Shown one piece after another: positions 33,777 to 63,486 of a stretch of 64,000 nucleotides of DNA. The DNA comes from Marsupella aquatica (Eukaryota; Plantae; Marchantiophyta). Positions within the stretch are counted from its first letter, which is position 1; every line of letters begins with the position of its first letter. The notes under the pieces are model-generated. The model ran no database searches, was not told the origin of the DNA, and saw only the letters and a list, made by a program, of their open reading frames with translations. The DNA is taken from NCBI GenBank assembly GCA_973895155.1, contig OZ316899.1, forward strand, positions 15,031,974-15,095,973, in the 5' to 3' direction. The position numbers and the translations under genes are program-made.

Positions 33777-35634
33777 CCGGGAAGACTGGCCACAGTGGCA
33801 AGAAGCCATAAATTCGGAGTTAGACTCACTGATAAAATGACAAGTTTTTGGCCCCATCATAAAGGTACCACCACAAACGAATTTAACTGGCTACAAATTT
33901 ACTTTCGTACGAAAAAGAAATGCGAAAGGCGAGATTATCCAATATAAAGCTCGACTGGTGGCGAAAGGCTATACTCAGATTTACGGGAGAGACTATGATC
34001 TTACATACTCACTCGTTATGGACTCCATTACATACCGCTACATGATTGCATTCGCTATGCACAATAAACTGATCATGCACTTAATGGACGTTGTCACGAC
34101 ATATTTATATGGCATTATGGATACAGAAATTTATATGCAGGCACCCCCTAAATTACTTACCAAAGTACAGTTCTACATTCAGGGGGAGAAAAGTCCTAGC
34201 TTACATCCAGATCTGACATCAGGCCTTAAACAGATCACTGATCAACCAAAGAAAGGACCTATAGTCCAGACTCCCCATGGGATACACATTCAATCTAACC
34301 AGCCTACAGCTGAGTTTGAAGCAAGTGAAACTCCTACAGAGATCTTGCAAAACTACCACAGAAGCCAAGGAGCTTCAATCCAAAAAGATAGTGGACTACA
34401 TCCACACCAAACCGCAAAACGGCCCAGAAAGAAGCAGAAATCTCAGCCACCATTCGCAATACAAGTCATGAGATCAATAAACGGCCTGAAACAAAGCGGT
34501 CGGATCTGGTATAAACGTTTTCGTGATGAAATGTTGAATTTAAACTTTACAAATGCTGAAATAGCACCTTGTCTATTCTTCAAGCAAACAGGCATAGAGT
34601 ATGTAATACTTGCTCTGTACGTCGATGATATTAACATCTTTGGCACTAAGCAGCTAACAGCAAAGACCATTGCAACACTGAAAAGTGTCTTTGAAATGAA
34701 AGATATTGGAACTCCAAGCTATTGCTTAGGCATCCAATTCAATCACCTCGAAGATGGCATCCTTATTAATCAATCGACTTACACTAAGAAACTCCTCAAG
34801 CAGTTCAATATGCAGCACTCATACCCGGTAACCACTCCAATGGATCTACGCTCACTAGACCCTGCAAAAGACATGTTTAAGAAGCGCCAAGAACATGAAC
34901 AGGTGCTGGGGCCTGAAAAGCCCTATCTCTCAGCGATTGGAGCCCTCCTTTACCTAGCAAATCAGACAAGACCCGACATCAGCTTCGCTGTCAGCCTACT
35001 GGCCAGACACGGATCACAGCCAACGATCAGACATTGGAATGGAATAAAGAGGGTCCTTCGCTACTTACAAGGGACAGTGGACATGGGATTATACTTCCCC
35101 AAGAATTCAACCCCGATTTTGACAGGATTCGCAGATGTAGGGTATTTGTCGGACCCAGATGATGCGAAGTGCCAAACGGGCTATGTTTTCCTGCAGGGCA
35201 CAACAGCAATTTCGTGGAAAAGCACGAAGCAGTCTTTGACAGCCACATCCTCCAACCATGCAGAAATTATAGCATTGTACGAAGCAACAAGAGAATGTGT
35301 GTGGCTTAGACACTTAATTAACCATATTAATCACAACACTGGCAAACCACTGCTAACAGAACCTACCATCCTTTATGAAGACAATCGCCCCTGCGTGGAC
35401 CAGATCGCCAAAGGATTTATCAAAGGTGACATAATCAAACACATTGCCCCGAAATTATTTTATGCACATGAACAACACGGAGAGAAGATTCAAGTTAAGT
35501 GGATACCAACAAAAGATAATAGAGCTGACCTCTTTACGAAGCCCCTGCCTCCCGTCCTCCACAAGGCACATACATTTGGCATCGGCATGAGACAGCTCAC
35601 AGACTTGTTACGTCCAGAAACAGAAAGGAATTAA
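33777..35634 (+). pseudogene. pol: Copia reverse transcriptase and RNase H (continuation after the Gypsy insert)
   Basis: YKARLVAKGYTQ, MDVVTTYLYG, GLKQSGR, LYVDDI, TRPDISFAV, GFAD, HAEIIA, YEDN, KHI and ADLFTKPL. In-frame TGA at 33838. Confidence 0.93.
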
Positions 35635-36212
35635 GATGACAGCCGAGATTACTTACCTGTACTCGAAAGAATGCAACTCGACAAATGATCGCTACAACGA
35701 CCTCTTTCAATAGCGCTCCTTGATGACCAGCGCGGGGACCAGCGTCTACCACTCGCGCACCTCGTAGCAGCCAACAACACTCCAAGAAACTACATTCCAC
35801 CTCCAAGGCGCTTTGTTCCCCTTCGACAAACCCGTCACCAGACCTAACAACGTCATCGACTAAACGTCGACTCTACCACTACCTAGCCGAAGACTTACTC
35901 CCCGCAGACTTTGCCCTTACACGCTCATTCTCCTTTTCGATAGTTACTCGAACAATTTCTCATATATTATGTTAAGACACTTACCTTAACTTAGATTAAA
36001 CTTATAAACAGTCTTAGATCAATTAGACTTTCATTACTTTTAATCATTTCCTCAAGGGTCCCACATTATGTAATGGTTGTGGCACTCTTTCCCTTATAGT
36101 TAGAAGAAGGGTTTTGATGAGACCAAACCAAATTGATGGGCACCACTACGGGTTAAGCTTTCCCCTACTATGGTTGATTTTTTGACTATCCCCAAATTCA
36201 ACCAAGGGGGAG

Positions 36213-36371
36213 TGTTATGAGTTAAACCTAACCCGTTAACCCTAGGTAATAGAGGTTAAGGAGTAGTTACATAACTACCTCCATATAACCCCACATATGT
36301 ACCAAACATTAACATTAATATAGATGTTGGAGATTGGAGTACATTCTGGCTATGGTGTCCTCATTCTAAAA
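36213..36371 (+). repeat. Copia 3' LTR
   Basis: Copy of 16587-16745 with terminal CA mutated to AA. Followed by TSD GTTTT. Confidence 0.93.
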
Positions 36372-36982
36372 GTTTTCTTATATTTTTAGAATTGATTATT
36401 GCAATGTTGATGATGCAAACATCACAATACCTGAGGATGTATTAAAAACTCCTTCCACCTGACCTAAGCATGTCAGTAAAGGCTTAAAATCTGAGATAGG
36501 TTAGTTTAACTATCTCAAAGTATATTAATACAATCTTTTAGGTCTCACAAGCTCTTAACGGGAACGAATTCTGGTTGTTTAAGAGGAAAGTAGTTCATAT
36601 TTCCTTAAACCCTACTCTACAATCCTAATCCATGCTTGATCACAAGGACCCCTAAGTGGCGGCTTCGGAGTAAGGTGACCAATACTCTGCCATTTTGCAT
36701 TCTCGTGTACACGGTTTCGGCATTCTCAGGGGTCTCACTATATGGATGTCTCCCCATCCCCTGCGACGGTTTTAGGCCTCAGACCCCCTAAAATGTAAGA
36801 AAAAAATTATTTTTCAACCCCTATAAAGTTGGAATATTCTTGGAATATTCTAAAATTTTGGTTAAAAAGACCCTAGTGTTCTTATAAGTCTCAAAATTGA
36901 ATTTAAAGGACCCTATTGTTCTTCTACAAAAATTCTTAAGTCTTCCCTTCAAACCAATAAATTGACCCTATACTTCGTCGCA

Positions 36983-39900
36983 TGTGATGTGCCATTTTTG
37001 TGGAAGTGAAACCCCCGAGTCGGCATTGAGGAGCGACTGTCAGTCAAGTGCATGTGGTGCATTGGGAGATTGCGCAAGTTCTTGGCATTCGGTGGAATGA
37101 ACACGGTGAATCAGGCAGGGAAGTTTTGGGGTTGTTTGCTTGAAGAAGCAAGGCAGTTGATACCTACGTATGAAGACGTTGAGCCGGAGCGCGCAGCCAA
37201 AGAACGAGCGGAGCTTGCACGATTGTGGGGAATTCACAAAATGGCATTTGTAGATACGGAGGAGGTGTTGGAAAAGTTCTCGTGGACACCCACCAGTGCG
37301 GAGCTTGATGAATTGCTTCTTCCAACACAACGCTTCGAAAGGTGTTCGAACTAACACCTACGCTTATCAAAGCCGTCTTCGCTTTACCAACAGGAAGGAA
37401 GACTAAGGTGGAGCAGAGGAAGATGTTGTCGGATGACCAGTTCAGGTCATTTCCAGGGCCTTCCACTAAGAATGGGTTTTTTAGGAATCAATGTACCAAC
37501 CCGCATATAGGGCAACTGATTGATTTCCTGAGAGTCACGTTGCATTGTACCTTGCCAAGAGCAGAAATCGGCAAAGCCCATGTATTTTTGGTGGAGAATA
37601 TCGATGCAAGCCGAGACTACAACGGCTATCTCTTAATGCAGTTGAAGAAGGCATTAAATGAAGAGAAGCAGAGCATTGGGGAGGGAGCGGTATCCAGACT
37701 AGGGTACCATCTGAAATTACTTTGCCGATATGCAAGAAGCCAGTCTTTTGCACCGGTGTTGCCTATACAGGAGCGGATGCCGATCACTACACCACTTGAG
37801 GAGGTGGAGGAGGACGAGGAGCCTCTAAGCAAGCGACGCCACGGGAGGAGGTCGGCAACACCGGCAACACAAGAATGGGAGCATTCCCCGATCAAGGAGG
37901 CAGAGGTAGTAACATATGATGTAGTGAGAAATCCGTTGCGCCAGCCTACTCGTAATAATCCATATGCAGGCATCCAATTGGTCGAGAGGAAGATGACTGC
38001 CAAAGAGAGAAAGAAATATGATGAGCGAATGGATTCGGAAACAGATGAGGAGGTAAGCCGAAGCCAGGAGAGGCCAGTATTAAGAGCTTCTAACAGAGCC
38101 CAAGTGGAGGGACCTGTGGAGGAAGGTCAACCAGCAGCAGCCCAACAATATTTGGAGGAAGAGATCGGGGGCTTTGGAGGAGAGGCCGGCATGCTAGGTA
38201 GTCAGGTTAATGTGGATGATTATGATGACGACTATGTCGATCACGGGGAGAGGCCGGTACCAGGAGTTAGAACGATGGGAAGGTTTTGTAGAAGACTTCC
38301 CGCAGTCTTCTATGGCAAGCCAGAGGACCAGAAAACCCCAGAGTCTCCTCCACCGGACGTGACACCATTGGAATTTGACCGAATGAAGGAAGCCGAGGCA
38401 GGTCTGAAGGAGAAACTCGACGAGTGGAGGGCCCAAAATGACATGCAGGAATGGCAGCTACCAGGGGGTGATTGGCCGGAGGAAATAAGATGGCTTAGTG
38501 AGAAGCAGGCCGAGCCTCTCACTGACTTCGATCAATTACGGGCAAAAGCTTGGGAGAAACGACCTCGTTGGTAGATGCCAGTATCACCTGGCAGGTCAAA
38601 ATATGCCAGGGATCGGGCTAGGGAGTATGGAGACATGTGTGGACTGCTCGCCTTAGAAATCTTTGGCAATGAGTTAGAATCCGGACCATTTCTTAGAAAG
38701 GAAATGGTTGACCAAACAAGATTAGCTAGAGGAGGCAATGACGTTGGAGCGATTAAAGAAAGAGGAGGTAATCGCTCGGCTTCGCTCCATGGAAGCCGAA
38801 GTTGCTAAGATAAAGTCTGGTCAACCAACTCAGCAGGATCTCTTGGCTAAGCACCAGGAATTGGAAGTGGCGAACAACCAATCGGAAAACTACCAATTGG
38901 ATAACCAGCAGATCAAGGAAAAATTGACAAAGGTAGAGCTGGAGTTAGCCGATTCAAAAGCAGAAGTACAGGGTCTAAATTGCCAAGTCAAGAGGCTCAG
39001 AAAGACGGCTAGGGATCAGGCCACCCAGAGCGAGAAGGCCTTGGCAAAAGCCCAAAGGAAGTATGACAAGTTACTCGACCGGTTGGAGGCCATGCGTGAG
39101 AAGCATGATGACGCCATTTGCACAGCCGCCAATGATCACCTAAGCCGAGTCCAACAGATACGCAAAGAGCTTCAGGAGGAGCTAACCAGGACAAAGCAGG
39201 CATGGACGGACAAGGTCACAAAATTGGAAGGCATCAACAATTCCCAGAGAGCCGCTTTGGATAAGCAAGAGTTTGAGATTGTGCAGATCTTAAACGAGGA
39301 GCTCAAGACGGCCAAAGAGGAGGTGCTCCGGCTTAATGAGGAGGTTGAGGATTTATCCCAAGAGCTGGAGGAGGCCAAAGACAAGATGATCGGCTTGCAG
39401 AGGTGTGCAGATAACCAAACAGAGAAGTTGCAAAAGTATGCCAAAGCTGGGCACGGATCACCAACTGGACGGTCTCCCGCTAGTGGCATGGTCGTCGGGA
39501 ATACGGAGATGCCGAAGCCGACATCTATTTTGTCAAGAGTAACTAGGGGTAAGGCAATGCAGTTGGTTGCGGATCTGGCCAAAACATTCATGGGGTCAGC
39601 AGGTACTTTTGGGGTACCCCTTAAAGCCACGCCATAAGAGGTTGAGAGTATGGCCGCCCACATTTGTGGGACTGTTGCTACAAAGGCAGTCGTGGTAGAG
39701 ATAAGTAATGCCGATGAACTTGGAGCTGTGGTAACAGGTTCAAACACCGGTACAGCCACCATGGACTACCAGAATGTGAAGCCGTGGAAGATCGATACAG
39801 GACGTATTGGAGAGCGGGCTTGGATTGAGGAAATAAAGGCCATTGCTATCCAAGTCATTTCCCAGGAGGATGCCGATGCAACAGCCAATGTCGGGGCCGA

Positions 39901-40910
39901 CAAACCAGAACCCGAAGTCGAGGAAGCCGAAGGGGTCAAGCCGGAGCTGATGGCAGGAGAAGGCGCAGAGTTGGAAGATTCGGACTTACCCCCGGTCACC
40001 TGACAATTAAGGAGGGCCAGTCATCGGTTGGAAGGAGGACGTGGCGGCAAGAGAAGGGCTTGGGCCAGAAGGGCGCGGCCGTTGTAGGATGGGACAGGGC
40101 AAGTAGCGCCCTGTCGGCTTAGGTAGTATTAGATGCTCGATTCACACAGGGTTCCGGGCTAGTCAAGTTTTTTAGGTGATAGTTTTTTAGTTGGATTATC
40201 GCGGTGGAAGGCCGTGAGTTGTGGTTAGGATTTCCGCCTTTTCCCTGAATGCGCTGCAAGGATAAAAACCTGGGCAGCGTGGCTCGGGGGGCTTTTTCTT
40301 AGTCAAGGCTTTAGTATAAATCTGTATTGTTGTGAGCACAAGAAGCTCTCGGCTAAATCTAGACCGCAGGGTATCAGTAAACCACCAGTTCCTTTGGATT
40401 TCTGAGCAATTGTTTGAATTGAGTTGGCCTCGTTGCATAGTTCGCAGATTCTTGCCATCCAAGAAGTTGAGTGTTATGATATTTGTTGCTTGATCGATTT
40501 AAGTCAAATAGGGTGAACTGTTGAGCAAAATACAATCGCATTGTCTTGATTGGAGACTGCCCAATCAAACTGTGAGAGAAAGGTGAGGATTGAGAGTGTT
40601 TAGTTGGTGAAGTGTGGGTTGAGTCAGTCTGAAAAAGACCTTCAGCCGGCTTAAGAAATTAAGCCGTAGAGGTACATTTCGGGGGCGGAATACAAATATA
40701 CCTGAAGAAGTTAAAGAGGAATTAGATGTCTCAGTTGTGCACAATTCACAAGCCCAATGAAAGAATCGATCCGATAAGTGTGGATCAAAGGAGAGGATCG
40801 CGTTTCCAAACCAAATAGCTGCCATACGGCAAGAGGACGGACATAAACAAGTGGTTTATGATCGACTGAGGGTAGTTCTTGGGGTTAGAGGTCTTGGAAA
40901 ACGTGCCACA
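36983..40910 (+). mobile_element. LTR-like unit D (diverged unit-A family member, internally deleted) with accessory ORFs
   Basis: Starts TGTGATGTGCC and ends GTTCTTGGGGTTAG...ACGTGCCACA, like unit A. ORFs 37052-40003 are colinear with 55082-58680. TATA-like TATAAAT at ~40315. No TSD recovered. Confidence 0.75.
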
Positions 40911-47221: not shown

Positions 47222-47570
47222 AAAAGTGTATTATTATTTGATTTATGTACATTTGCACAATGAAAAGTGTACTTTTGAGCTTGGAAAAGTGTATATTTGG
47301 CCAATGAAAAGTATACATTTGGGGATAAAAAAGTGTACAATTGGCCTAAAGAGTGTATATTTGGGCAATGAAAAGTGTACATTTGGGCATCCAAATATGT
47401 ACATTTGGCTTAAGAAGTGTACATTTTAGTACATTTGGCCTAGAAAGTGTACATTTGAGTAAAAATTACATACATTTGGCTTAAAAAGTGTGCATTTCAA
47501 TGCATTTGGTCTAGAAAGTGTAGCTTTGGGTGCAACAAAGTGTACATTTGGCCTAAAAAGTGTACATTTT
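47222..47570. repeat. Degenerate tandem array of ~20-bp AAAGTGTACATTTGG units (probable subterminal repeats of the transposase-bearing element)
   Basis: Roughly 15 copies, starting right where the Copia integrase breaks off and lying 3' of the minus-strand transposase. Confidence 0.75.
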
Positions 47571-47784: not shown

Positions 47785-50700
47785 CTACTTGTCCATCCTT
47801 TGGAGATAACTTTGGACAGTTTGTAAAACATTTTGAGGAATCTTCAAACCTCTACCAACCATGTTTTCTTCTTTCATTCCAGATTTAAAACCATACATTG
47901 CAGAGTTTGCATACTGCCAATGTTGAGTGTTCTCACCAAATCCTGGATCTTGTTCCCATGTCTTGGTGGACATGAAACAGTTGAGATACCAAGCACTCTC
48001 ACTCACATCAAGTTTAGAGTGTTTAGGCCTCCACCATTCCACTGGGAATATTGGAGCATATTGTTGAGGCAAAGGAGTGTCTCTTGAAGACGCAATTGGG
48101 ACTTCATGCTTAGGGTCCACCAGACCCAAAGCTCTCACCAACCAGAAATGACCTCCACCATTTTTATTCTCCCAGTCATCCTCCAGTTGAAGAAAAACAA
48201 AGTTCCCTTCACAAATATCCTATAGGGGAATCCACCGTCCTTGTTCTCTCTCAGCTCAAGATCCAACAAATGGTGTTGCTTTATCTTCCATCTCTTCCAA
48301 GACCTCATTTTGAAGAGTCGTCATCTTTGCATTCTCCTCATCTTCACTTGGAAGACCACTTTGTTCCGGTGGATTGACCTTGTAACCAATGCCATGGTTA
48401 GTCTTAAGCCAAAATCCATTTTTCAAGGGAAATTGAGTACTTCCCTCCCCTTCTAGTGCGAGCCCATTTGTCAACAACTCCACAATTCTCTCCCAATATT
48501 TCACAAGAGGAAATCTTTCCTTATATGCTATAGATGTCTCATCAATGCAACTCTTTCTCAAAAAATCAAGGTACTTGTTGAGAAATGGGATAATCTCTTC
48601 AGATTTGTTTTGTAGCTCTCCAATGGATTTAGCTAAGGACTCTCCACTAGGTAGAAGAAGAGAATTTGTTGTTAGATCTGTTGCCCAAATGCACCTTCCA
48701 CCAACTAGAGCCCAAGCTTGCTCTACATGGGACTTATACTGAAATATTGGTACATTATCTCTCATAGAGAAAAGAAATGATACAGGTTTTGAATGACCTT
48801 GAATATCTTTCACCTTGAAAGTTTGAAGATATTCTTTGTAAGATGCAACTTCTTGTATCAATCTGGGAACTGGATGAATGCTCTCGCATTCCCATACCTC
48901 TATCATAAGAGCAAGGAGGGTCGCAACTTCTTTGTGCTGAACTTGATATGATACCTTTGAAAATAGTGCATCAATCATGTGTATGACCAACCATTAGAAA
49001 AGACATTTGAACAGTTTCAAATACTCCTCTACTCACAAGCTCGCTAAAAAAATGCCATGACAGTCTGGTTTTTGTTGTCCTTTGCTGAATTATCCATCTA
49101 CAATGTTAGGTGTTGTGGCAAGGGCTTCAACAATGGACTGCCTTGCTCCCCATGCATGTCTTCTCCATCATCCTCATCTTGCCGGTTTGGGATGGTCTCA
49201 GTCCGACAGTTTATGCCAAGGGAATCCTGGATTGGTTCCAAATAACCTGTCAAAAATGCTTCAAAGTCAAGTAGGGCTTGAAAGAAAGGTCTGTGAGGTT
49301 CCCAATGAAGGCCATCCAACATGTCACGTGTTTTGTCTCCATTGTACTCTTCAAGGTCTCAAAGGCACTTAGCCAAGGATGTCACCGTGAAATCGGCATC
49401 CCCTAGCCAAAGGCCAGTGACACTAAAGTGTGCGTAAATCCTGGATCTCTCCCATGAGTCAACATCTCTGTGAGAGCAATAGGTAGCGGCATTCCATGAC
49501 CTGAAAGCAATTTAGGAGTACTAACCATTTTTGGAATCCATGTTTTTGCTTGATCCATCTTGTCATGAATAATGCAAAGATATTCTCCTAGGTGTTGCTT
49601 GGCCATCACTCGATGAGCGTAGTAAACATATCTACGTGACATTTGCTCACAAAGATGTTGCGCTCATTTTTCTTCAATTTCAGCACATTCTTTTTTCCTT
49701 CTTTCCCGCATCAAATCGTCTTTGTATTCACAACAAAGAGTACACTTGGCAAATGCACCATCTTTATGGAAACTGAAGTTTGCAAATGAGGTGCTCCAGA
49801 TCTTGTAGAGAGTATTCTTTGTGACGGGAGGAAGCCCTTCTTCCTTCATCTTTGTTCTCACATCTTCTAGAATCTGTAGCTTCTTGTAACACGCCGAAAG
49901 ACGGTACTCAATGGAGTCTGTCCCATGTGCCCCTCCATAAGGCATATGAGGCATGGGCTCTGCATTTTGAGTCAAAAAAGCCTCCAAGAGAGCTTGTGCA
50001 TGCAAGGTATTTGCCCTTGTTTTCATCAAGCCCGTATTGCCATGGAACCCAATTTTGCAACCCTCCACGTATCTCCTTTTGTAATCATAATATTTGGTGT
50101 GGCTAAAACCATGGATAATTGCAAATGCATGTCTGCATACGACCATACCCTTAAGAACATGGTGTCCCTTATCACGAACATCATCCTCTCTATAGTGAAA
50201 GAGGTTGAAAATGTGTGACGTTTTTGATTTGCTAGACATCCCATGAAATTCCATCCTAATATCTTCGATGTTTTCCCTTGGCATAATGAGACAACATTTA
50301 TGCTTGCAACAATTTTCTCTTTTCACGTCATCAATTGACGCTTCTCTTGTTTTTGAAATTGCCTTGGTTTCCAACAACCTCTTCTTTTCATTTGGATCTA
50401 CTTGATTCCTCTTGTTAAAATTGTACGGCCTTGAACGCAGTACTCCTCTATCACTTACATCCTCATTGAGTTCATCCCTATCCATTGAGTCCATCCTCTC
50501 AGGACCTTCCACCAAAATGTCCAACAATTTTTTTCCATTTGCCACTAGTTTTGTTGAATCAATCCGCCATCAAATCAAACTCACTACTCCCCTGTGGATG
50601 TTGGGAAAGTATTGTGCTGCCACCACATCTTTCACAGCAATCCCAACATGGTCATCGCCAAGAATTTCATCATCAACTGCCGCCGTCACTTGAGGGGTAG

Positions 50701-51521
50701 TGATCGTTCCAATGGCAACCATATTGGTTCGATCCAAACCTGTGTAGAGTTCAGCCAACTCTGACATCCAATTTTCCCAATGAAAATAATCACGCTTAGT
50801 GTATGTGGTGTTTGCCAAACAAGACTGTGAAACAAAATCCGCCCCGTCCTTCTGCTTGTTAGAGGAAGATTTTTTGCTCCCATCGATATCAACATTCCAT
50901 ACTTATTGTGGACATCAACCACATCCCATAGAACCCATGAGCCCTTTGCCTCTTCAATTGTTGCAGCTCCACCGTGTGCGTAAGGTAAAGTCTTACTACC
51001 ATGAATCACATCGGTAATTTTCACACTAACCCGGGACTCACCGAGTAATATGTTATGGCATCTCTCCATTGGATCGGTCTTGAAAACAACTCCAAAGGCC
51101 ACACAATGGCCAGAGATAAACATTTCAACCTCATTGCCTGGCCTTAGGGTGGTCAAAGCATCCTCTACATTTGCAGATTTATGGATGTTGTTATCTGGTT
51201 GAGTCAAACAACTACCAATACTGATGCGTTTTTGAGTAATTTTATCCGCAGATCGATATGCACACAACATATCCCAAATGACACATGAGTCAATGGCATC
51301 ATGAAGATTTTCCGCCCTAGGCATTGGAAAAGGGAGCTTTCTGGTCTCCTCAAAGGCCTTCTCAATGAGAACCCCAATTCAATTCTATCCCAACAAAATA
51401 TTTTGAACACTCTCTCGCGGATCCGTCTTTTGAACTGTCCCACTTCCAACATCATAACCATCCATTGTCAAGGTCACATCATTGCCCCTAGAAAACCTTT
51501 GAGACATCCTTTCCCTATTTC
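47785..51521 (-). pseudogene. DUF7869-type (Sola-like DDD) transposase with three N-terminal DUF8039-like repeats and a Cys cluster; many stops and frameshifts
   Basis: CCKHKCC, VCRHAF..IHG, FAKCTLC, IIHDKMDQAKT, L(Q)MDNSAKDNKN, FLMVGHTH(..)IDALFS, and C-terminal VEWWRPKH. Upstream intron at 51522-52367 (AAG/GTGAGT...TGCAG on the minus strand). Confidence 0.8.
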
Positions 51522-51559: not shown

Positions 51560-52165
51560 AAATTTGGATTGAGACCATTTGAATATAAACTTTACTTAGA
51601 CCATCCGAGTCTGGATTTGGACTAAGACCCTCTGAGTCCGGATTTGGACTGGGACCATCCGAGTCCGGATTTGGACTGAGACCCTCTAAGTTCGGATTTG
51701 GACTGGGACCATCCAAGTCCGGATTTTGACTAGGACCTTCCGAGTCTGGATTTGGCCTGGGACCATCCAAGTCCAGATTTTGACTAGGACCTTATAAATT
51801 TGGATTTGGACTGGGACCATCCAAGTCCGGATTTGGATTGCGATCCTCCGATTCTGGATTTCAACTGGGACCATCCGAGTCTGGAATTGGACTGGGATCC
51901 TTGGAGTCCGGATTTGGACTAGGACCATCCAAGTTCAGATTTGGACTGCAATCGTCCAAGTACGGATTTGGAACTCGATCCTCCAATAAGTCCGGATTTG
52001 GACTTGGACCATCTCAATCCAATATTGGACTCGGACCATCCCAATCCAAACTTGGACTCGGACCATCCCAATCCAAGATTGGACTCGGACCATCCCAATC
52101 CAAATCCCAATGCAAATTGGGACTCTGACCATCCAAGTCCAAACTTGGACTAGGACCATCCTAGA
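51560..52165. repeat. 27-bp palindromic tandem repeat array (about 20 units) in the transposase intron
   Basis: Unit GGATTTGGACTGGGACCATCCGAGTCC. It shows as 9-aa periodicity in spurious ORFs. Confidence 0.92.
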
Positions 52166-53429
52166 CCAACCCAGGTAAGACATTGGGAGATGAACCCCAA
52201 ACATCTTAAGCTAAGAAAATCCAAATTTAGGAAAACTCCATATTTTACGGATCTCCCTATATGGTGTAGCCTAAAGTTGGCGTGATCTTAAGCTAGACAC
52301 TAATGTCTACATACAGTTTCATGAAATAATGGAACCTTATATTTGAATGCATTAACCTTATACTCACCTTAGTATTAAAATCTGGTAGAAGATGAATATC
52401 ACATTCAAGGGATATACTTTGTTGTTTCCAGATTGGTAAAAACTTTCCCAAAACCTTGCAATGCAAGCTATATGAGGCTAAATCTTGGGAATAAAAAACA
52501 ACTTAAACCCTAAACCACACTTCTCTATAAAAAATAAACTGAAAGGACTCCAAAAGCCAGGAAGTTGGCTGAGTTGACCCATTGCAAGTAAGTGGCTGAG
52601 TGCCGCAATGAAACTCCGAATTTAATGGAGCTAAGATTTGGGAAACTAGAACAAGAATGAGCTCCGAAGAGGACGTCTTCCAAATTATACCCTTGGCTTG
52701 AGTCAGTTCAACCAGAAATCTCGTGAAGATAAGTGTCAAGTATCCTTTCACCTTAGCTTGCAGACACACCTTATCTTTGCAAGGCTAAATGCGCGGGGAC
52801 AACCATGCAAGGTCATTTGGTAGCATTTAGGGCGCCGTATGCAGGAGGTCAAGGAAGGTGGCCATATGGAGGGTCGGGGCTGCAGGCCGTACGGATGCTG
52901 CAGGCCATACATAGGGAGCCAGCCATACGCAAGGTGAGGCAGGAGGTCAAGGCAGGAGGGGGTAAAGGGGTGAAGAGGTCCTGCCAGGACCTCATTCTCT
53001 TCTGCTTGCTCTCCATCTCTCCGCTCTGCTCTGCTCTCCGCTCTCTACCTCTTCGCTCTCCTCTTTGCTCTCCTCTTTGCTCTCCGCCTCCGCCTCCCCT
53101 CCTACCGGCGCCTTCCGTCTCCATCCTCCACAACCTTAAACCCTTTGCCTCCGCCTTCCGCCACCACCTCCATCCGGGCCTCTTAGTCCCGCCTCTTACC
53201 CCTAGATCGGATGCCTGCTAAGACACCACGTGTCATTTGCCATGCGTATTCAAGATGGAAGTGAACCGTGTCCTTGTTGGGGTCCTTGTGTTGTCCTCCA
53301 TGGAGCCAACGGAGGAGTTGGACCTCTCCTCTGTGAACGACAATGTAGAATTGGCACTCAAAGACTCCAGACAATTTCAATCACGAATCCCTAGTAAGTA
53401 TGCATCACCTATCCTCCCTAAGTCTTAGA

Positions 53430-53565: not shown

Positions 53566-54881
53566 GACAAGAATGAATCCCGATTGTAGGTGAAGGTCTA
53601 AAACTATCTCAAGTTGTACGTCTAACATGGACAATGTTTATGATGCAGGGAGAAATCTTGTTGGTTTCAAACCCGCAATTGCAACGGCTGACTGCCTGGA
53701 CGGATTCTTACTAGACGACGGGTCCCCAGGTTTCCGACGGGGGCTTGACTTCTCAAGGACCCCGCTTAATAATGAAGTATCAATAGGCACTATTGACCGG
53801 TTTTGACCTTAAAGTGCATATCAAATGATGGCCTGACTTTTGTTTCCGGACCTGTGGTCTCGGTTGGCATTGGGGGGAGAGGGATGAATTTGGTCATTCT
53901 GGAGATGCACAACAGGTCCTATTGGGTGAAACTTAACCTCGTGTCAAAGGCATACTCCTCAGAATTCAAAGTCAAATGGCACGCAAGTGGGGAATTGAGC
54001 GTGTTGTCAATGGGTTTTTTTCCAAAGACCTATGACACAAAGAAGTTGATCGTCGGGGTAACCGGTATGCTTCCAATCGACATTATGTATGGGTTTCAAT
54101 ATTTGAAACTCAACATGATGAAGCACCAAGGTAGTTTTTCTTTTCCAACTACCTGGACCTTGAGCAATTTACTTGAGAAAGCTGGATTGTTATCGTTGGA
54201 GTCAGGCCTGGTGTTTTAATCAATAAGGAAATTGCATTTGCTCCCAAGTTTGATTTAGTCAAAGCAAAACAATGGGTAGAATCTTTGTCCAAGGGGCAGA
54301 AGCTTCCAAAGTTGAATACAGACCTTGCACCCAAGCAAGCGCCTGAGAAAGCTCCAGAACCTACAACTGAGACCGCAGGAACTACAGCAGCGACCTCTCA
54401 AAGAGCACTGGGAAAGCGAAAACAAAGCCAAACAAAACCTCTGGTTGAAAAGAAACTGCCAGTTGAGAAGCCGAGTACGAGAAGATGAGTTGAGAATCCG
54501 GTTGAGAAGCCAAGTACAAGAAGCCGAGCTAAGAAGCCGGTTGAGAAGAAACTTCCAGTTGAGAAGCCAAGTGCAAGTGAAAAGAGGCCAAGACAGAAGA
54601 AGAAGTAGAAAATTGACAATGCCATCATGGATGACACTACAGAGAACCTGACAGTGCATTCACAAGATGTGGACGAGCAGTTGGACGCTCCTGAGGAGAA
54701 GAAGGTCTGAGAAGGTAATGAGGTACTGCAACAAATGGAGCAATATTATACGTTTGGGATCAATTCAATATTTTCTATTCCCGTAGAGAGTATTTTCCCT
54801 GCGTCGGCAAGACTTTGTTACAGAATGTTGAATGCAGACCATGTAAAGGATGTGGCCAATTCCATGATAAGAAATCCGGGG

Positions 54882-57800
54882 TGTGATGCCTAGCCAGGAA
54901 TTATTAGGCCAATTTAAATAGTAAAATCAGGACTATACCCTAGGAAACACCTTAGTATAGTAACAAAAATAGGGAAATATAAACAATTAAGGCTGACTAT
55001 GGAACCCGAGCCGAGGCCGAAAGTAAGGACGCCGGGGGAGGGAACACGATCAGGGTTAGGGTGCACTAAGTACCGGCGGCTATGGGTAACCAAAGGGAAA
55101 GAAGACCAGCCAAGGGGGGGGTAAGGACCGAGCGCAAGGAATGGCAGCTCATTTGCAAACACGAGCCAAGCGGACGACTACGGGAGGCCAACTACTGTCC
55201 GCTGCTCAGGCAAGCACTCGGGGTGGAAGCAGATACCGACAATCAACTCAAGAAGGGTATGAGCAACGTCAATCAAGCTGCTCATTTTTGGGGATGCCTG
55301 TTAGAACGGGAAACTGAGTACATTGGGACCTACGAGGACGAAGAATCGGAGAGAGCGGCTCGAGAATGGTAGGAGCTCGCTCGGCTGTGGGAGCTGCAGA
55401 AGTTTGCTTTCTTAGGAGGAGAACTCATTACGGCTGAATTCTTGTGGACGCCTACTGCCGACAAACTTAACGATCTTCTGTTTTGTGAGAACAGAATAGT
55501 CGGCATCCGGGAGGCCATCAACCGCTGCAATGACATACACTGGGAGTTGAAGGGTAGCACGAAGGGGTGGACAAAGGCAACCGTGCTAGGAGAAACATCC
55601 ATGGCAGCCGTTATGAAGAGGAAAGGGAACAACAACAAAGAAGCCACCCCTGCGAAAAGAACAAGGTCGGCGGCACCCAGGAAACCAGCAGAGCAGGGAA
55701 GCAGGAGGCAAGCGGAAGCCAAAGAGGAGGAGGTCAACCCCGTCAATGTCATTCCAACAAGAGATGACACCTAGAAAGGCTGGGCGGCGACCCTCCCCAA
55801 GGAGGTGCAATTACACTTTGCACGGGAGGAGGATGCATGCCTTACGGCTATGCAAACTCGGAAATACCAAGGTTTCATGGCCGGATCCGGCTTGGAAGCC
55901 TTTGTAAAGTTACCATGGCTAAAGCCGGAGGTGCCGGATTCAGACTTACTAGAATTCGTGGGATCATGGGAGCCCAAGACCAATTCCACAAGGGTGTATG
56001 GGAAGGATTTCTATCTCACTCCCCGGGTGATTGCCGAAGTGTTTGGCTTGCCGATGGGCAATAAGACCAAAGTAGATACCAGGAAGACCTTGCCAGACAG
56101 GGAGTTCTGGTCGTTTCCAGGGCCATCAACAAAGAATGGCTTCTTCCGAAACACCTGCACCAACCCGCACATAGGAGAAATGATTGATTTCTTGCGGGTA
56201 ACCATGCATTGTAACTTGCCGAGGGCAGAGATCGGCAAGGCACAGGTCTATCTGGCGGAGAGGCCAGACCCAAGCCAAGACTACAACGGGTACCTCCTCA
56301 CCCAACTAAAGAAGATCTTGAAGGAGGAACAACTGGTGATCGGCATGGGAAGCGTGTCCCGACTTGGTTATCATATGCCGCTATTGTGCCGGTATGCCAG
56401 AAGTCAGATATTCACCCCGGTATTGCCCCTGCAGGCAAGAGCACCAGAGGAGGTTCCAGAACCGAGGCCGACAATAGAGACACCGACCCACCCGACAGTC
56501 CTACAATTGAGCAAGTGTTTAGGCCGAGGAAGGAGGACTTGCCAATGCAGCAACCAGGCATGCAGAATCTGCTGAAATTGCTGGAGAAGGAAAGGAGAAC
56601 GGCAACGGCAACGGCAACGGGACCCGTACAGAATACTGCTCCCAAAGTCGGCCTTAGCCAACTTACCAGGGAAAACCCCTTTACCGGGGTCAAGGAGAGA
56701 AGGAGGCCGGAACACGAGCCGGGAGTCCGAATGTATGTAGGAGCTTCAAGTCCCGAAGCCGAGGAAAAGCAGCCCAAAGCTCCTAGTCGCGATAGGGAGA
56801 AGATGAGATCAACGTGGAAGCCAGAGGAACCAGGACCCGTGATCTGTGAGGCCGTGTTCATGGCAAGACCAGGACAGCAGCGGGGGGAGCCGGTAGTCCA
56901 AGCCGAGGAGGAGGCGGTAGAAGGCTACGACAATGATGACTCCGGCTACGGGTCAGACCATCATGTTCCAGGAATAAGGACCTGTGGCAGGTTCATCCCC
57001 ACTCTTCCAAGAGTAGTTCGAGGGGACCCGACTCAGTAGAGCAGCCCCAAGTCTCCCCCACCAGATGTCGCTCCCCCGAGCTTCGACGGCATAAAACAGA
57101 CGGCATAGGAGTTTCAGGAACAACTTAGGGAGGAAGAAGAGGCAGCCCTGGCTAGGGAGAAGGATTTACCAGGAGGAGAATGGCTAGAGGACATCAGGCG
57201 GCTTGCAAAAAATGAAGCAGCCCGCCAGCCACGATAGAAGAAATTTGCAAGGCGGCTTGGGAACAAAGGCCGCGGTGGATGATGCCGATGACTTCTACTC
57301 ACTCCGCCTATGCTAAAGAACGAGCCATGGAGTACGGGGAGATGTGTGGGGAACTTGCGCTCGGCATCTTTGGGGAGGAGTTGGAGTAGGGACCTTTTTT
57401 CCAGAGGGAAATGTTGGAGAAGCGCCGATTAGAAGAAGCGGTGGCTTTGGAGAGAAGCAAGAAGGACGAGGTCATCCGTCGGCTTAGGGCAAGGGAAGCC
57501 GAGGTAGAAGACCTGAAGGCGGCCAAGAAAGCCCAAGATGAGCTGCGGATTAAGCGGCATGAGCTCAACATCATGCAGGGGCAATTGGATACCGCGCAGT
57601 CTGATAATCAGATTATCAAGGATAAACTGACTCAGACCCAAGGTGAGCTGGCCGATTCGATCAAAGAAAAGGAGAAGTGGAAGCAAGAGCTGAGAGACGC
57701 AGAGGAGGCCCACATAGCAGCCAACAATCTGGCCATGGCGGAAACTCAGAGAAGGGAACGGGCGTTGAAGGGGGAACTCGAGGATATCCGCGGAGCCCTT

Positions 57801-59595
57801 GAGCAGAAGGAGGCCGAGTTAGGGAAATCCTATCAGGAGATTATCGTGCTGCGGCAGGAGCTTGCATCCATGACGGCCAGCTTCAAGGCCAACCTCCGCA
57901 AGAAAGACAACCAACTCGACCAGACTTATGCCAAGATGAATAAAATGGAGTCTGAGGTTGTTATGGAGCTCGACAAGGAGCTGAGAGCAACCCAGGAGGA
58001 GAGGGCTACCTTAAAGGAGGAATTGGAGGAAGCCCAGAAGGAGCGGGAGGAGGCGCGCAAGGACCTGGATGAATTGCAGGAAGAGTTGGAGGAAAGCACG
58101 CGGAAGATGGAGAACTTACAGCGGCGAGCCGACAACCAAACGGAGCGGCTGAAGAAACAAGTCGCAGTATTTAAGTGCTTGGCTTCCTTCAGGTCCAACT
58201 CCAATTGGGGCAACCAAGTTACCAGGAGTAGTATTGGCCGAAGGACAAGCCAAGACACTTGCACCGGTGCCGGAGGTAAGTGGCAAGGGGAAGGGGCCAG
58301 CTGCCGAACCAAAGAAGAAGAAGCGAAAACCTTTTGGGTCAGGGAGTAATACGGCTCCTCAAGCCGTTGTGACCAAGGAGGTAAACCCAACACCAACCTC
58401 AGGCAGGGTCACGGCAGAGGATCCAACTGCCCTAGAAGGCGGGGATGGCAAAGCCAAGGCCAGGATACTCGGTGATGAAGCCAGGGTACCGGATCCACCA
58501 CTAGAACATGTCGGGGAGGCCGTGGCCGATGCTGAGGCCAAAGCCGAGGGTGGACCCAGTCAGGCCGATGGAGAGTTGACTTGGTCCGGAGCAGGTAATC
58601 TGTCAGAGGGCGGACCTACGGTAGTGGCTGTGGAGGAAGTGTTGGGGGCGTCCATTGAGGACCAGATACCACTGCCATGACAATGGTGGAGGGCCGCTCC
58701 TTTTAAGGAGGCGGACGTGGAGGGAGGAGGCGTGAGTGGGCAGGGCGGGCTCAGATCTCCAAGTTTAGAATTAGGATCAGGACCAAGGGGCGGCCCTGAC
58801 ACTTAGCTTAGTGGGATTGCGGATCCACTGGTAAGAGCAACACTTGTGCTCCTGCCTCACTGTACATAGGTAGATTACAGTTAGGTAGATTACAGTAGGG
58901 TAGATTAGGCTTACGCTACAAGGAATTAGGTGGATCCACTACCAGGATAAGTACCTGGGCAGTGGGGAGTTGAGGGCCTTCTTCCTTAGCAAGTTTTTAG
59001 TGCACCAGCAGGGCTGGGATCAAGTAGTTAAAGAAGCTCTCGGTTAGTTATACTGTGACCCTTGTGTATATTCATGTTTCCTCATACCTAAGAGATGAAT
59101 AGAGTTGGCCTCACGGCTTAGTTCGCAGATCTTGTATATGAGAAGTACTCTTTGTATGGCAAGTGCATGGTATAACTCAGTCAGAAGGAGTCATTTTGCT
59201 ATTTGTGTGTCGCATTAACTTGTTTGAAGATTGCCCACATCAACCAAGAAGGGAGTAAGCAAGGTAGTAAGAGTTGGATGTGTCGAGCTGAGAGAGGTCT
59301 TAGCGGCTTACCCAAGCCAGTTGGGGATCATTCCGGCGGCGGAATCCAAACATACCTAAAAGGAAACCGAGAGAGGAGGACAAGGGAAGGCCTAGAATAG
59401 GCCGGCTACGTATCTCATGACCCGATGAAGGATCTGTCCAGTACATGTGAGTAAAATGTTAAATAGTAGTAGAAGGAAGTTAGCAGCGTCCCATGCCGCT
59501 AAGCCGCAAAATTGGCCTCGCCAAGAGCAAAACCTGCTGGAATCGGCTTGTGCAGAGGGGTTTCTTGGGTTTAGGGAGCCATGGGACGCACCACA
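54882..59595 (+). mobile_element. Unit A: 4714-bp solo-LTR-like element with accessory ORFs and no gag/pol
   Basis: TGTGATG...CACCACA termini. Perfect TSD CGGGG (54877-54881; the right copy is reconstituted after removing element B). Upstream ORF at ~55000-55550 and main ORF at ~55601-58680 (accessory domain plus long coiled coil), both with stops. Confidence 0.85.
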
Positions 59596-59598
59596 CGG

Positions 59599-60427
59599 TG
59601 TCGTGCCGAAAGATTTTGGCTCAAGAATGGCTTTTATAGGGGATGATGGGCGAGGCCTCCCGGTTGGGTTGCGTGCATGCTGACTTGGAGGGGTTGCTTG
59701 GTTTGTTGGATTGAGGTTTGGTGATTGGGTGACTCATCGTCACCAGGTTTGGTGTTTGGGTGAGTCACCAGGCTTGGAGTTTGGATGAGCCTCGCTGCTG
59801 GCAGCTGGCTCAGACTGGGTGGTTGGGTTTTCGATGTTATTTAAGACTTGAGCCTCGGCTCATTGAGGTTGGCGGTTGTCTATTGAGATCTGTTGAGTTG
59901 CGCTCTGTGAGTTCCACTCCGTTCTGCGGAACTCGACTGTTGTGCGGCGGTTTTGGAGTTCTGAGTGAGTTTTTGATCCAGGTGGGGAATTTCTCAAGTC
60001 TGGAGTCTCGTTGATCCAGGCGGGGATTTCTCAAGTTTGGAGTCTTGTCGATCCAGGCAAGATTTCTCAAGTTTGGAGCCTCGTTGGTCCAGGCCCGAGT
60101 TCCGTGCGAGTTGTTTTAGACTAGTGGAGTAGCTAGTCGAGTTTTTGGTTTTGTGAGCTAAGGAGGATAGTTTTTCCGTCAAATTTTGAGTAGTCAGTCA
60201 CTCGAGGAGTTCTACTCGACAAGTTAGAGGTAGCGGCCCGCCGTAGGGCCAACTACCAGACTCTTGCGGGCAAGCTTACTCGAGGGCACCTATTGTAACC
60301 TTTGTGAGAAAAGTAAAAAATATAAAGGAGTGAGAGTTCCCTCCAAAAAGTGCTTGTCACCTGTCCCGATCGCAGCCAGAAATGCGTAGTTTGCCCGAGG
60401 AGCCCCTAACTTTAAGTCCTTGCGACA
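59599..60427. mobile_element. Solo LTR B (829 bp) with a 4-bp TSD
   Basis: TGTCG...CGACA termini. ACGG at 59595-59598 and 60428-60431. Three ~38-bp internal repeats at 59977-60095. Confidence 0.8.
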
Positions 60428-60969
60428 ACGGGGCATGAACCACACATTGCAAACTTGATTCCTTACACTACAAAACATAGAAACCTAATGCAATATGACA
60501 ACACGGAATCAGATAGGAGAGACTTTGTAGCAGCCATGAAAAAGGGCAAGGTTCAATTCATTGCCATTAGCGGTCAACATTCGGCTAGAGCAGCCAGATG
60601 GATTCGAGAATGGGCAAAGAAGGATGCCAAGCTAACAGCATTGGAAAAAAAGCTGGAATTTCAAAAGTCAAGAATATTATCTCATCAAACACCATTGTCA
60701 ATATTAGTTGAGCATTCAATGTGATCGAATGCTATCAATAGCACAGTGGTGTTTCAGTCATGCTTCAAAGATACAGTCGTTCATGCCAAGCAACAATTTA
60801 TGGAATGTGAAAGACCTAACCAGCCAAAACATGGGGACAACAAAAAAAACGCTCAAGACAACCAAAAATTTCAGGTACAAAGTGTTACTGCTTGATGGGT
60901 ACAATACCATAGACTCTCCATATGTGGTTACAATTGAGATGGGGATTTTTGAACACAAAGCTTCAAGTT

Positions 60970-61315
60970 TGGTTTGGATTGAGATGGTCCGAGTCCAGAT
61001 GGATTCATGCACATTCAGTACAATATTTCCACTGATACCATCTAGTTTTGTGTTGGACTGGGATGGTCCCAGTCCAAATGGATTCACGCACATTCAATAG
61101 AATATTATCATTGATATTGTCTAGTTTTGTGTTGGACTGGGATGGTCCTAGTCCAAATGGATTCACGCACATTCAATATAATATTTCCACTAATACCATC
61201 TAGTTTTGTTTTGGACTGGGATGGCCCCAGTCCAAATTAAATCATGCACATTCAATAGAATATTTCCACTGATCAGACTGTCTAGTTTTGTGTTGGACTG
61301 GGATGATCCCAGTTT
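60970..61315. repeat. Five ~80-bp tandem units, each containing the palindromic motif in inverted orientation, in intron 2 of the ParB-MTase gene
   Basis: TTGGACTGGGATGGTCCCAGTCCAAA cores at about 60973, 61053, 61133, 61211 and 61293. Confidence 0.9.
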
Positions 61316-63486
61316 GCACCTGAGTGCATTCAAACAATTGAGTTATGGAGCTAACAGACTTTCCTTTGCAATTGTAGGATTGGTTGGCTCTTGCAAGAAT
61401 GACCATGAGAAGGAAGGATTGTCAAAATGTTTACTGGTTACTTTTTGCTGACAATGCTCTTTTAGATTTATGGAGTTTGGTATGCCAGTTGTGGTTGGAT
61501 GGAAAACTTCCTGATGGAGCTGGGGTAGAAGGAAATGAGAAGTCTGAAAAAGCAATTACTGTTGCCATGTTTCGTTGTTTTGATGGTGAGTTGATCTCAC
61601 AAAGAGACATCACAAGAATACTGACGCGGGTGAAGTCAGGAAAGGTATTGCTAAAGAAAGACGCCTCTAATAAATCAGACATGCCATCTATAGAGGAGTT
61701 GGCCAAAGATGTGAAGATCGTGCGGAAACTGAAGTCCCTTATTGAAGACTACTATTGCACCAAGGATGCGGTGAATTTCCCGATAATTACTAATTGGGGG
61801 AAAGTAGTTGAGGTTCTTCCTACGCTAACAATTGATGCAGAGTTCAGCAGGTGTCAAAGAGCCGTTGGCGAGGTCTATCTTGCCAACCTTTTAAAGCCCA
61901 ATCATACGCGGGAGAGCGCAATCTTGCCGATGGCATTGGCATTCCGCCTAGATGATATATATACTGCCAGAAATTTGGCGGATGATCACGTTCTTGGACC
62001 CTACCATGGGTTACATTTTTAGCGACAATCTCATGAAGACCATTGATCCAGAGTCATTGCAAGAAGCTCCTCCGACCTGCCCTCTTGCCATTGTTGATTT
62101 TAGCCCCCAACAATCCAAAGCCAAAATTCTTGTATACATCAAAGGATGTTGATTACAAAGTATGCAAGATTGACAAGGGAAAGGGAGAGGCTAAGGAAAC
62201 AGATGAGGGGACACAAAACAATGACCTAAAAGTGGTTTTGGACCCAAAAGAGGTAGTCAAGATTATGAATATGGCCCCTTGATTTGAGACAGTTGGCAGT
62301 CGCAGTGGGTGGGTTAATCCTCATGCCAAACCCACGCGGATGATCCGAAGGATTATTGAATCCTTGTCAAAACCGGGAGATTTGGTTCTAGATTTTTTCT
62401 CCGATGGCCAAGTCATGAAGACATCATTTTTTTGCGATAGGGAATGCTTTGTTTATTGTGACTCTCAGTTCGAGAGGCATTTTGAGGAAGCTTTTGCTTC
62501 CTACCTTTGCGAGAGAGTTCCCTCACTTAAAGCCCATTGTGAATCACTTGCTGAAAATTCTCGACAATGGGCTACCACTGGTGCGGCTGTAGCTGTCGCT
62601 GTTGAATCCAACGGTTTTGAGTTTGAAGATGTTGCTGACAAAGTGGCTGAAGGCGTAGAGGCATCAAAGGGGGCATATGTCAAGAATTTGGATGACCGTG
62701 TTGGTCAAGGTGAGCCTTACAATGTAGATGATGATATTGGACTTTCACCAAACCGTTCATCTGGTTTAGATGACATCCCTCCGGGGCCCAATGAAGTTCA
62801 GGTTGATGATAACTTGGACAAGGATGATCCCAATCCAACACCGCCAGGAGGACAGATGGAGCAAATGGAAGGAGCAAGGGTTGATACATTTGATCGTCTT
62901 TCTTCAACAAATCTGATCAATGAAGGCGCAACGAGGCTTGGAGATTCAAATGAAGCTGAAACTCAAGAATTGACTCCGGGGGAGATTGATGGATTGCCTG
63001 ACATTCCCATCAATCCAGGAGAAAATTCATCAACGGTTGTTGACAACCAGGCAGGTGCTTCAACTTGTCTTGACACACTCTTTTCAGCTTCTGATGACAA
63101 ATTGGTGTTAGTTCGCTCACACTCGGGGAGTCCTATTGTCCTTCCGCTATCAAAAAAGAAAGGGAATAGAGTTGAATCAACTGGATGGAGGTCATTCCAG
63201 ACGCATGATGTTACGTGTGGAAAATTGGGCCAAATAGAGGCCAAGAAATACCATTGGATGCTGCTCCTTCAATTCTAAATAAGGAGGAGTATAAGAGGGG
63301 AGAATTGGGGTTGATAACTCATGTTTGGACTTCACCTTATTGGGTAGAACAAAGTACTTCAGATGTCAATTTTGAAATCCAACAGGAGCTTGGTGCTGAC
63401 ATGATTATTGATGAATACGGATCTCTTATTTTGGGATGAAATTCAGCCTTTGACTTTCTATTTATTCATACCAGTCTAAAATACTT

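Follow-up and report, generated by a model that had tools for sequence, protein, structure and literature searches.

What is a 4.7-kb unit that inserts like a retrotransposon, carries a protein-coding region over most of its length, and yet holds neither gag nor pol? The question is posed by one locus, here called unit A, in a 64-kb stretch of the Marsupella aquatica genome (the window, meaning the whole stretch analysed). An earlier note, made from the letters alone, had read it as the solo LTR of a Gypsy element with a whole gene in its U3. Here we show that unit A is a real, multi-copy 4.7-kb insertion with integrase-type ends. We infer that it is probably the solo LTR of an Athila/Tat-type Ty3/Gypsy family that houses an accessory gene inside its LTR.

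Limits, ends and target site of unit A

The insertion and its immediate surroundings comprise the following features.

54882-59595, + strand: unit A, likely solo LTR, 4,714 bp, with TG...CA ends and a 7/8 terminal inverted repeat
54877-54881, + strand: left copy of the 5-bp TSD, CGGGG, the 5 letters shared by the empty-site joint
60429-60433, + strand: right copy of the 5-bp TSD of unit A, CGGGG
59599-60427, strand not assigned: separate 829-bp unit TGTCG...CGACA with the 4-bp TSD ACGG, probably the solo LTR of a different family

The termini read TGTGATGC on the left and GCACCACA on the right and are complementary at 7 of 8 positions, as expected from the TG...CA ends and short inverted repeat first noticed at this locus. 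By itself such a pattern is no evidence, since the window contains 158 TG/CA pairs with a short inverted repeat and a 5-bp TSD. The empty-site joint from 54876 to 60429, with 5 letters in common, was present in all four sequencing runs (two studies), and the host reading frame continues unbroken across it, which bears out the claim of a perfect TSD whose removal restores the frame. In the reads, the 3' end at 59595 is sharp and its flanks, in 17 and 38 contigs, are unrelated.

The earlier note had assigned its 4.7-kb unit to 54877-60433. The size stands; the extra width belongs to the 829-bp unit, which went undescribed there; it is inserted on the last base of unit A and so reconciles the 4.7 kb of that note's title with its 5.56-kb coordinates. 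This second insertion has its TSD at 59595-59598 and 60428-60431, and its target fits NCGN, described as a trait of Phygy (PMC6317226). It has no sequence similarity to unit A, and treating the two as one element was rejected because each has its own TSD and its own end with diverse flanks.

Within unit A we found no terminal or long internal direct repeats, and alignment of its 5' part with its 3' part revealed no similarity (z = -1.0). The same alignment disposed of a hidden short LTR pair suggested by a 10-letter word at 54914 and 59459. No gag/pol match was obtained with Pfam in any of the six frames scanned, in agreement with the first reading of the locus, and no integrase (rve) or transposase match either. 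TRIM, LARD and TR-GAG elements lack pol and have TG...CA ends, a TSD and two terminal direct repeats; unit A shares the first three features and differs in having no terminal direct repeats. An ordinary non-autonomous LTR element of these kinds is therefore excluded, as unit A lacks both gag/pol and the direct repeat. Ginger-like DNA transposons with TG...CA ends either encode an integrase-like transposase themselves or end in long inverted repeats, and a cut-and-paste origin of this sort does not agree with a unit that has no rve and an inverted repeat of 8 bp.

A decayed gene once under purifying selection

The interior of unit A and its two relatives by descent in the window are laid out as follows.

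54882-55081, + strand: AT-rich 5' non-coding part carrying CCAAT (54909) and TATAAA (54978)
55082-55771, + strand: N-terminal coding part in the core's frame, stops at 55370 and 55772 (against copy D, pN 0.28 and pS 0.89)
55775-56458, + strand: conserved core domain of about 200 aa, relative of Gypsy accessory ORFs
56459-57389, + strand: acidic/proline-rich linker and second conserved block, with stops and frame changes
57390-58160, + strand: coiled-coil region of about 255 aa (dN/dS 0.27 against copy D)
58161-58680, + strand: C-terminal tail, stop TGA at 58678-58680, frame change near 58187-8
58681-59595, + strand: 3' non-coding part, 915 bp, kept to the terminal CA in copy D and in the 12490-12930 fragment
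58686-58694, + strand: GTGGAGGGC, possible relic PPT directly after the stop codon, with no TG next to it
37094-40910, + strand: diverged copy D, with ORF order and 3' part as in unit A, ending GCCACA
12490-12930, + strand: A-family 3' fragment, about 80% identity, internal deletion, ending GCACCACA

The coding span, 55082-58680, measures 3,599 bp (76% of the unit), matching the earlier estimate of about 3.6 kb. The description of the unit as mostly a protein-coding gene thus holds for its proportions and fails for the state of this copy. With five in-frame stops (55370, 55772, 57037, 57106 and 57387) and about three changes of frame, it is a pseudogene, a single coding region of about 3.6 kb that is now broken; the frame change near 58187-8 is absent from about half to most of the contig depth. 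What had been taken for a separate uORF is the N-terminal part of the protein, in the core's own frame and one stop codon apart. By eye, this part ends in a basic, NLS-like stretch. The supposedly SMC-like coiled coil is a coiled coil, matched by generic coiled-coil Pfam families only, below cut-off, and with no SMC family among its Pfam matches.

Comparison with copy D showed 293, 224 and 461 differences at codon positions 1, 2 and 3 over 710 codons, with pN at 0.36 and a saturated pS of 0.80 for this one pair of copies; the core domain is 70% identical over 152 aa. Saturated synonymous change against a pN of this size indicates that the protein was under purifying selection, and upholds the claim that copy D keeps the protein with mainly third-position changes. 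The 3' part aligns strongly with both relatives (z=31 for copy D, z=36 for the 12490-12930 fragment). Directly 3' of copy D lies integrase sequence of another element; its 5' end is not recognisable and does not align with that of unit A.

Kinship with the accessory ORF of an intact Gypsy element

One related element in the window is complete.

20224-33771, + strand: intact Athila/Tat-type Gypsy element with identical 1,390-bp LTRs, 5-bp TSD, PBS at 21620, gag and pol

Its accessory ORF lies internally at 29269-31815 in sense orientation, with a PPT motif both before and after it (28880-28896 and 32363-32379). A profile of the unit A core matched this ORF at 29296-29790 with an iE of 1.3e-7, against 5.7 for the best reversed-sequence control, and also found two further units, B and C. 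By this profile comparison the unit A protein and the accessory ORF inside the intact element are distantly related.

The core has 20 homologues at E<=0.001. Unit A and 17 aligned members gave no Pfam match above the curated cut-off, with PMD (PF10536), Transposase_32 (PF20167) and ATHILA (PF03078) among the families compared. Language-model neighbours of the core include a PMD-bearing cluster (score 0.87, PMD in 14% of members); for unit C, the neighbouring clusters are those of Transposase_32 and ATHILA (0.90). We treat a possible kinship of the core with these three families as an indirect lead only. The modelled protein has a pLDDT of 50 and a pTM of 0.41, and the best fold match of this low-confidence model (Z 2.8 among 48,161 chains) is uninformative. 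Similarity of the N-terminal part to a Calypogeia homologue is weak, its score being reached by 5 of 300 shuffles. Word-index protein searches returned nothing among longer proteins and elsewhere only a self-match, with a poorly trimmed alignment. The exact 3' terminus of unit A occurred in 0 metagenome contigs, and scans for related loci gave none in viral contigs, metagenome contigs or prokaryote genomes.

A core domain, a basic stretch and a long coiled coil together predict a nuclear accessory factor. PMDs are known to be encoded by Gypsy elements, and those of the host (MAIN/MAIL1) function in silencing (PMC5418596). Our leading guess as to function, drawn from such distant families and offered tentatively, is that the protein may act on the chromatin, or the silencing, of the family that encodes it.

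Solo LTR, derivative or a distinct kind of element

The solo-LTR reading is the best fit to the integrase-type ends, the 5-bp TSD, the many insertion sites, the absence of terminal repeats and the kinship of the protein with Gypsy accessory ORFs. In the survey cited, a 5-bp TSD is found in 93.4% of plant LTR elements, and non-chromovirus LTRs reach about 5 kb (PMC6317226). To this extent the earlier proposal of a Gypsy solo LTR is sustained. No paired copy came to light in the window, and a primer site follows none of the three A-family 3' ends there. Both results count against a solo LTR, as does the sole intact relative in the window, with its internal ORF and 1,390-bp LTRs. Read flanks past the 3' end of unit A agreed at 0.37-0.44, compared with 0.33-0.41 for random sequence, in a comparison of low power in which the control unit likewise appeared without a PBS.

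Three further observations favour the solo LTR, the first weakly. Unit C, which carries a related ORF, begins with TG right after AGGGA, a weak fit to the end of a PPT; its flanks form no TSD and its limits are uncertain. At 9289-10800 lies a second TG...CA unit, flanked by a 5-bp TSD and containing a long reading frame in decay. The third is the PPT-like 9-mer GTGGAGGGC after the stop codon of unit A, identical at 9/9 positions to PPT letters of the intact Gypsy element, with a local chance of about 4e-4 for a motif noticed after the fact. A shorter version occupies the equivalent place in copy D. Against the motif, the coding region of D holds one chance occurrence of the 9-mer, and a 17-letter PPT search allowing 3 mismatches reached neither A nor D. 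A further point against the solo LTR is that the LTR of the intact element has no similarity to the 3' part of unit A (z 0.8); the 3' part of unit C has none either. A candidate for an ORF inside a 3' LTR, in which a homologue of the 9289-10800 unit would follow pol, a PPT and TG at 41802, was rejected as equalled by chance, its best score being matched by 10/200 shuffles and 10/112 other windows.

The internal position of the ORF in the intact relative suggests another origin, which we consider unlikely: a non-autonomous derivative of a short-LTR element, in which deletions joined a 5' LTR piece, the ORF and a 3' piece before the product spread. An internal ORF would be followed by a PPT-like motif, as is the case here after the stop. 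The 5' non-coding part lies below the interior in contig depth, with the first 370 bp lower than the rest, and the 5' end of D does not align with that of A. Against this, an ORF kept together with a whole 3' LTR would repeat the first bases of unit A within it, and no such repeat was found. A unit without any terminal repeat cannot be reverse-transcribed by the LTR route, yet copy D retains the order from ORF to CA at saturated synonymous distance.

If instead all these ends are complete, as the three without a primer site in the window and the diverse flanks in the reads would allow, unit A could be an LTR-less element whose DNA is mobilised in trans by a retroviral-type integrase, its gene being cargo that aids persistence. 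This one window also holds several TG...CA units, unrelated to each other, that have ORFs but lack gag/pol, which points the same way. However, unit A has no transposase or integrase, its inverted repeat is merely 8 bp and its protein is of Gypsy accessory type; solo LTRs look identical and often outnumber full elements (PMC4667437). We regard this reading as distinctly improbable, and equally so its extension to an LTR-less, gene-carrying bryophyte class derived from the Athila/Tat accessory block and served by integrase in trans, with several unrelated families of this build in the one 64-kb window.

Should unit A be an LTR, the gene might still lie outside U3, either downstream of the start site (R/U5) or antisense in a minus-strand LTR, an arrangement we hold to be decidedly unlikely. 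CCAAT and TATAAA precede the ORF, about 100 bp in from the left end, and this 5' part may serve as the gene's promoter. In the 3' part, the minus strand (about 59470-59355) offers TATTTAA, a patch of pyrimidines and a splice-donor-like AG/GTAT, the last also in D. Extra ORFs of Retand/Grande-type elements are antisense, and antisense extra ORFs have been reported to carry promoters of their own (PMC7264820). On the other side, the PPT-like motif is on the + strand, the related intact element carries its ORF in sense, and promoter-like words this short can arise by chance. The minus-strand words make both the orientation and the choice of U3 over U5 tentative.

On the solo-LTR reading, a plausible route would start from an element like the intact relative, with its PPT duplicated on either side of the accessory ORF. 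Were plus-strand priming to move to the upstream PPT, the ORF, the old PPT and the sequence downstream would become part of the LTR. The full element would then run from an LTR of about 4.7 kb through PBS, gag, pol and PPT to a second 4.7-kb LTR, with two copies of the gene, and LTR-LTR recombination would leave a single gene-bearing unit between 5-bp TSDs.

Discussion

The nearest parallel to such a layout is sag of MMTV and related betaretroviruses, a protein gene largely within the LTR (in U3), under purifying selection and surviving in solo LTRs; in MMTV-like viruses the LTR gene mostly survives there (490/527 contigs; PMC4667437). Unlike sag, the gene of unit A encodes an unrelated protein, is 3.6 kb long and resides in a plant rather than in an animal retrovirus, in what is probably an LTR. 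Among plant elements, unit A resembles the Athila/Tat/Ogre (OTA) Ty3/Gypsy group in its 5-bp TSD, its TG...CA ends and LTRs that reach about 5 kb (PMC6317226, PMC7264820). Extra ORFs of OTA elements encode a plant-mobile/Athila-type domain or a coiled coil, and one such element, in the window, has an internal ORF akin to the unit A core; unlike the gene of unit A, these extra ORFs are described as internal, before gag or after pol (PMC6317226, PMC7264820). Soybean Diaspora likewise has long LTRs within the Athila lineage (2.5 kb, with Ogre over 5 kb), and its PPT and LTR follow closely after pol (PMC1142308). The description of Diaspora, in contrast to unit A, reports no long ORF outside gag-pol; the extra ORF was lost there, not relocated (PMC1142308). 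The literature searched, the main texts of open-access papers, yielded no plant example of a gene inside an LTR.

If unit A is indeed an LTR, then a family of plant retrotransposons houses a gene of roughly 1,200 codons in its LTR and doubles it in every element, and the gene, perhaps with its promoter, outlasts the very recombination by which hosts purge such elements. Paired-LTR finders would overlook units of this kind or label them host genes. Movement of plus-strand priming from one duplicated PPT to the other would offer a testable route to giant LTRs, and the family may provide a clean system for the long-open role of plant extra ORFs. Rather than inert scars, solo LTRs would in that case form a store of a trans-acting protein encoded by the element.

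Insertion of unit A and its empty site

Unit A is a repeat with TG...CA ends that encloses a decayed accessory-type gene and bears a second, smaller unit on its right end:

54882-59595, unit A, 4,714 bp, ends TGTGATGC and GCACCACA
59599-60427, nested 829-bp TG...CA unit, 4-bp duplication ACGG, on the last base of unit A

Because the nested unit occupies the last base of unit A, the right CGGGG copy lies at 60429-33. Chance TG...CA end patterns are frequent (158 pairs with a 5-bp target-site duplication, TSD, within the window), and the insertion is therefore proven not by its ends but by empty-site contigs, in which 54876 is joined to 60429 with five letters in common (4/4 runs, two studies). 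The reading frame of the host is uninterrupted across this joint. Both the TG...CA unit with its 5-bp TSD and the restoration of the host frame on removal of the insertion and one TSD copy, as proposed in the earlier note, are thus borne out. Neither terminal nor long internal direct repeats, nor Pfam matches to gag or pol, were detected in unit A; the earlier note had likewise reported no internal direct repeats and no gag/pol.

Contigs on the stretch number thousands per run, mostly at 90-99% identity, and their summed depth, which is not copy number, is far higher in the interior of unit A than in its flanks. It drops sharply at 59595, where 17 and 38 contigs continue into differing sequences (12 of 51 loose ends listed). 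The interrupted host (54600-54881 and 60434-63278) is itself repeated, judging by high-depth empty-site contigs; its downstream part matches PF01555, N6/N4 DNA methylase (E 5.9e-6; 26.8 bits, cut-off 26.7), and it may be a mobile element that carries a methyltransferase of bacterial type. No related locus of unit A was found in the metagenome contigs, viral contigs and prokaryote genomes searched.

A decayed gene under past selection

The coding span, previously put at about 3.6 kb, runs from an ATG at 55082 to a stop at 58680 (3,599 bp, 76% of the unit), and in this copy at least five stops and some three frame changes interrupt it. From the proposed uORF, accessory domain and SMC-like coiled coil, a core domain with homologues and a plain coiled coil in the C-terminal half were retained; SMC kinship was unsupported by Pfam, and the "uORF" shares the frame of the core, one stop away, so that it may be the N-terminal piece of a single protein.

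Comparison with copy D, a diverged relative at 37094-40910, gave 293, 224 and 461 differences at first, second and third positions over 710 aligned codons (pS 0.80, pN 0.36). dS was saturated in four of five blocks, and dN/dS in the remaining block was 0.27. Conservation of the protein in copy D with mostly third-position changes, and the suggested dN/dS check, thus both indicate, from one pair of sequences, purifying selection on the lineage of this gene, which says nothing of a working copy here.

Relatives of the protein in the window

A search of 1.84 billion proteins gave 20 homologues of the core at E<=0.001, with an identity of 42% for the top one; of ten looked up, the two named ones are both from Calypogeia fissa. 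A profile built from 14 trimmed cores (best reversed-sequence control, iE 5.7) matched unit B (iE 1.8e-38), unit C (iE 3.5e-6) and the ORF that the intact Gypsy element carries internally (29269-31815; iE 1.3e-7). Pfam named none of these, nor the core itself.

Relatives and neighbouring features
6737-9279, minus strand, unit B, two frames, the second 22% against the unit A core (E 1e-16)
9289-10800, minus strand, 1,512-bp TG...CA unit, perfect 5-bp TSD
12936-16587 and 36377-36426, unit C, TG start directly after AGGGA
20224-33771, plus strand, intact Gypsy element, identical 1,390-bp LTRs, 5-bp TSD, primer site, gag, pol
28880-28896 and 32363-32379, two copies of a 17-letter polypurine-tract motif in the intact Gypsy element, one following pol and one preceding the 3' LTR

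The ORF of unit C aligns with that at 29269 (27%, E 8e-29), and unit C may be a 3' LTR with an ORF inside, its limits being uncertain. It is interrupted by a Copia element (16588-36371; 157-bp LTRs, 96% identical), which the intact Gypsy element has in turn divided; the 100% identical LTRs of the latter make that insertion very recent. Unit B is truncated by a CACTA end immediately past its stop. The unit at 9289-10800 lacks an internal repeat; its decayed frame, roughly 245 codons long and interrupted by two stops, is unrelated to the unit A protein. Chromovirus-type pol with a deleted end (12100-12470, read by eye) adjoins an A-family 3' fragment at 12490-12930. Decayed frames of a DNA-transposon-like element (48256-51378, minus strand), one matching PF25273 DUF7869 (E 1.3e-8), lie near tandem repeats at 47246-47570 and 51562-52170.

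The intact element is provisionally labelled Athila/Tat-type. Its RT-RNase H is 67% identical to Riccia sorocarpa, 64% to Calypogeia fissa and about 40-51% to flowering plants among the 120 matches listed. With the C. fissa homologues of the core, these identities place the window, a nest of transposons, in a non-seed plant, most probably a liverwort. Athila/Tat lineages are present in liverworts according to the sections available of PMC12885004 and PMC13468544, which do not treat a gene-in-LTR layout. Its primer site begins six bases past the LTR, compared with five in Diaspora and Calypso (PMC1142308, in excerpt). Its ORF related to the unit A core follows pol in sense orientation, which identifies the ORF as a Gypsy accessory gene kept internal in some families.

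Origin of unit A

We consider unit A to be probably a solo LTR whose U3 contains the gene, as the earlier note had it: its insertion ends, TSD and Gypsy accessory kinship agree with this, while no paired copy was seen. An LTR-less class moved by an integrase, the alternative in the earlier note, we regard as improbable. According to PMC6317226, 5-bp TSDs occur in 93.4% of plant LTR elements, and non-chromovirus LTRs reach about 5 kb.

Nine letters of the polypurine-tract motif lie directly past the unit A stop codon and seven at the matching place in copy D, with no TG following in either; the local chance of the 9-mer is about 4e-4 for a motif noticed after the fact, and the motif also occurs once in the coding region of copy D. 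Together with the duplicated tract of the intact element, this suggests a priming shift, in which plus-strand priming would have come to start at the upstream tract instead, so bringing the ORF into the LTR. A separate candidate in the window, an ORF following pol, polypurine tract and TG, seemed to exemplify an ORF in an LTR and failed its control.

The intact element, with its related ORF internal between 1,390-bp LTRs, is just the short-LTR relative that, by the earlier note, would make unit A a deletion derivative; in such a derivative, however, a complete 3' LTR retained alongside the ORF would repeat the first bases internally, and unit A has no such repeat. This origin does not fit and is unlikely. 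That unit A is an LTR with the gene outside U3 or antisense is also unlikely. CCAAT and TATAAA upstream of the ORF speak for the former and minus-strand promoter-like and donor-like words in the 3' part (the 915 bp after the stop) for the latter, and with promoter-like words at both ends U3, U5 and antisense layouts can all be accommodated.

No primer site follows any of the window's three A-family 3' ends, as would often be expected if solo LTRs are common. Agreement among contig flanks past 59595 was 0.37-0.44 against 0.33-0.41 for random sequence (contigs counted, not depth), a comparison of low power, as the nested control unit yielded no primer-site consensus either. Consensus strings of the loose ends from two runs agree in register over eight letters, positions 8-15 (per-pair chance about 2.6e-4), which may reflect insertion sites in common or a conserved stretch further on, for instance a primer site.

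Known systems and possible function

The favoured layout, a solo LTR with its gene in U3, resembles that of MMTV, whose LTR gene, unrelated in sequence, lies mostly in U3 and survives mainly in solo LTRs (PMC4667437, as excerpted). Surveys, in the portions at hand, place extra ORFs of plant elements in the internal region (PMC7264820, PMC6317226), and a literature search at the level of titles and abstract openings turned up no plant element whose LTR holds an entire gene.

Structure prediction for the unit A protein was poor and a fold search returned no informative match. Language-model neighbours suggest, weakly, a PMD affinity for unit A and Transposase_32 and ATHILA affinities for unit C. 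Host PMD proteins function in silencing, and an anti-silencing role for element-borne ones has been put forward speculatively (PMC5418596). By this indirect analogy, the unit A protein may be linked to PMD silencing or anti-silencing functions.
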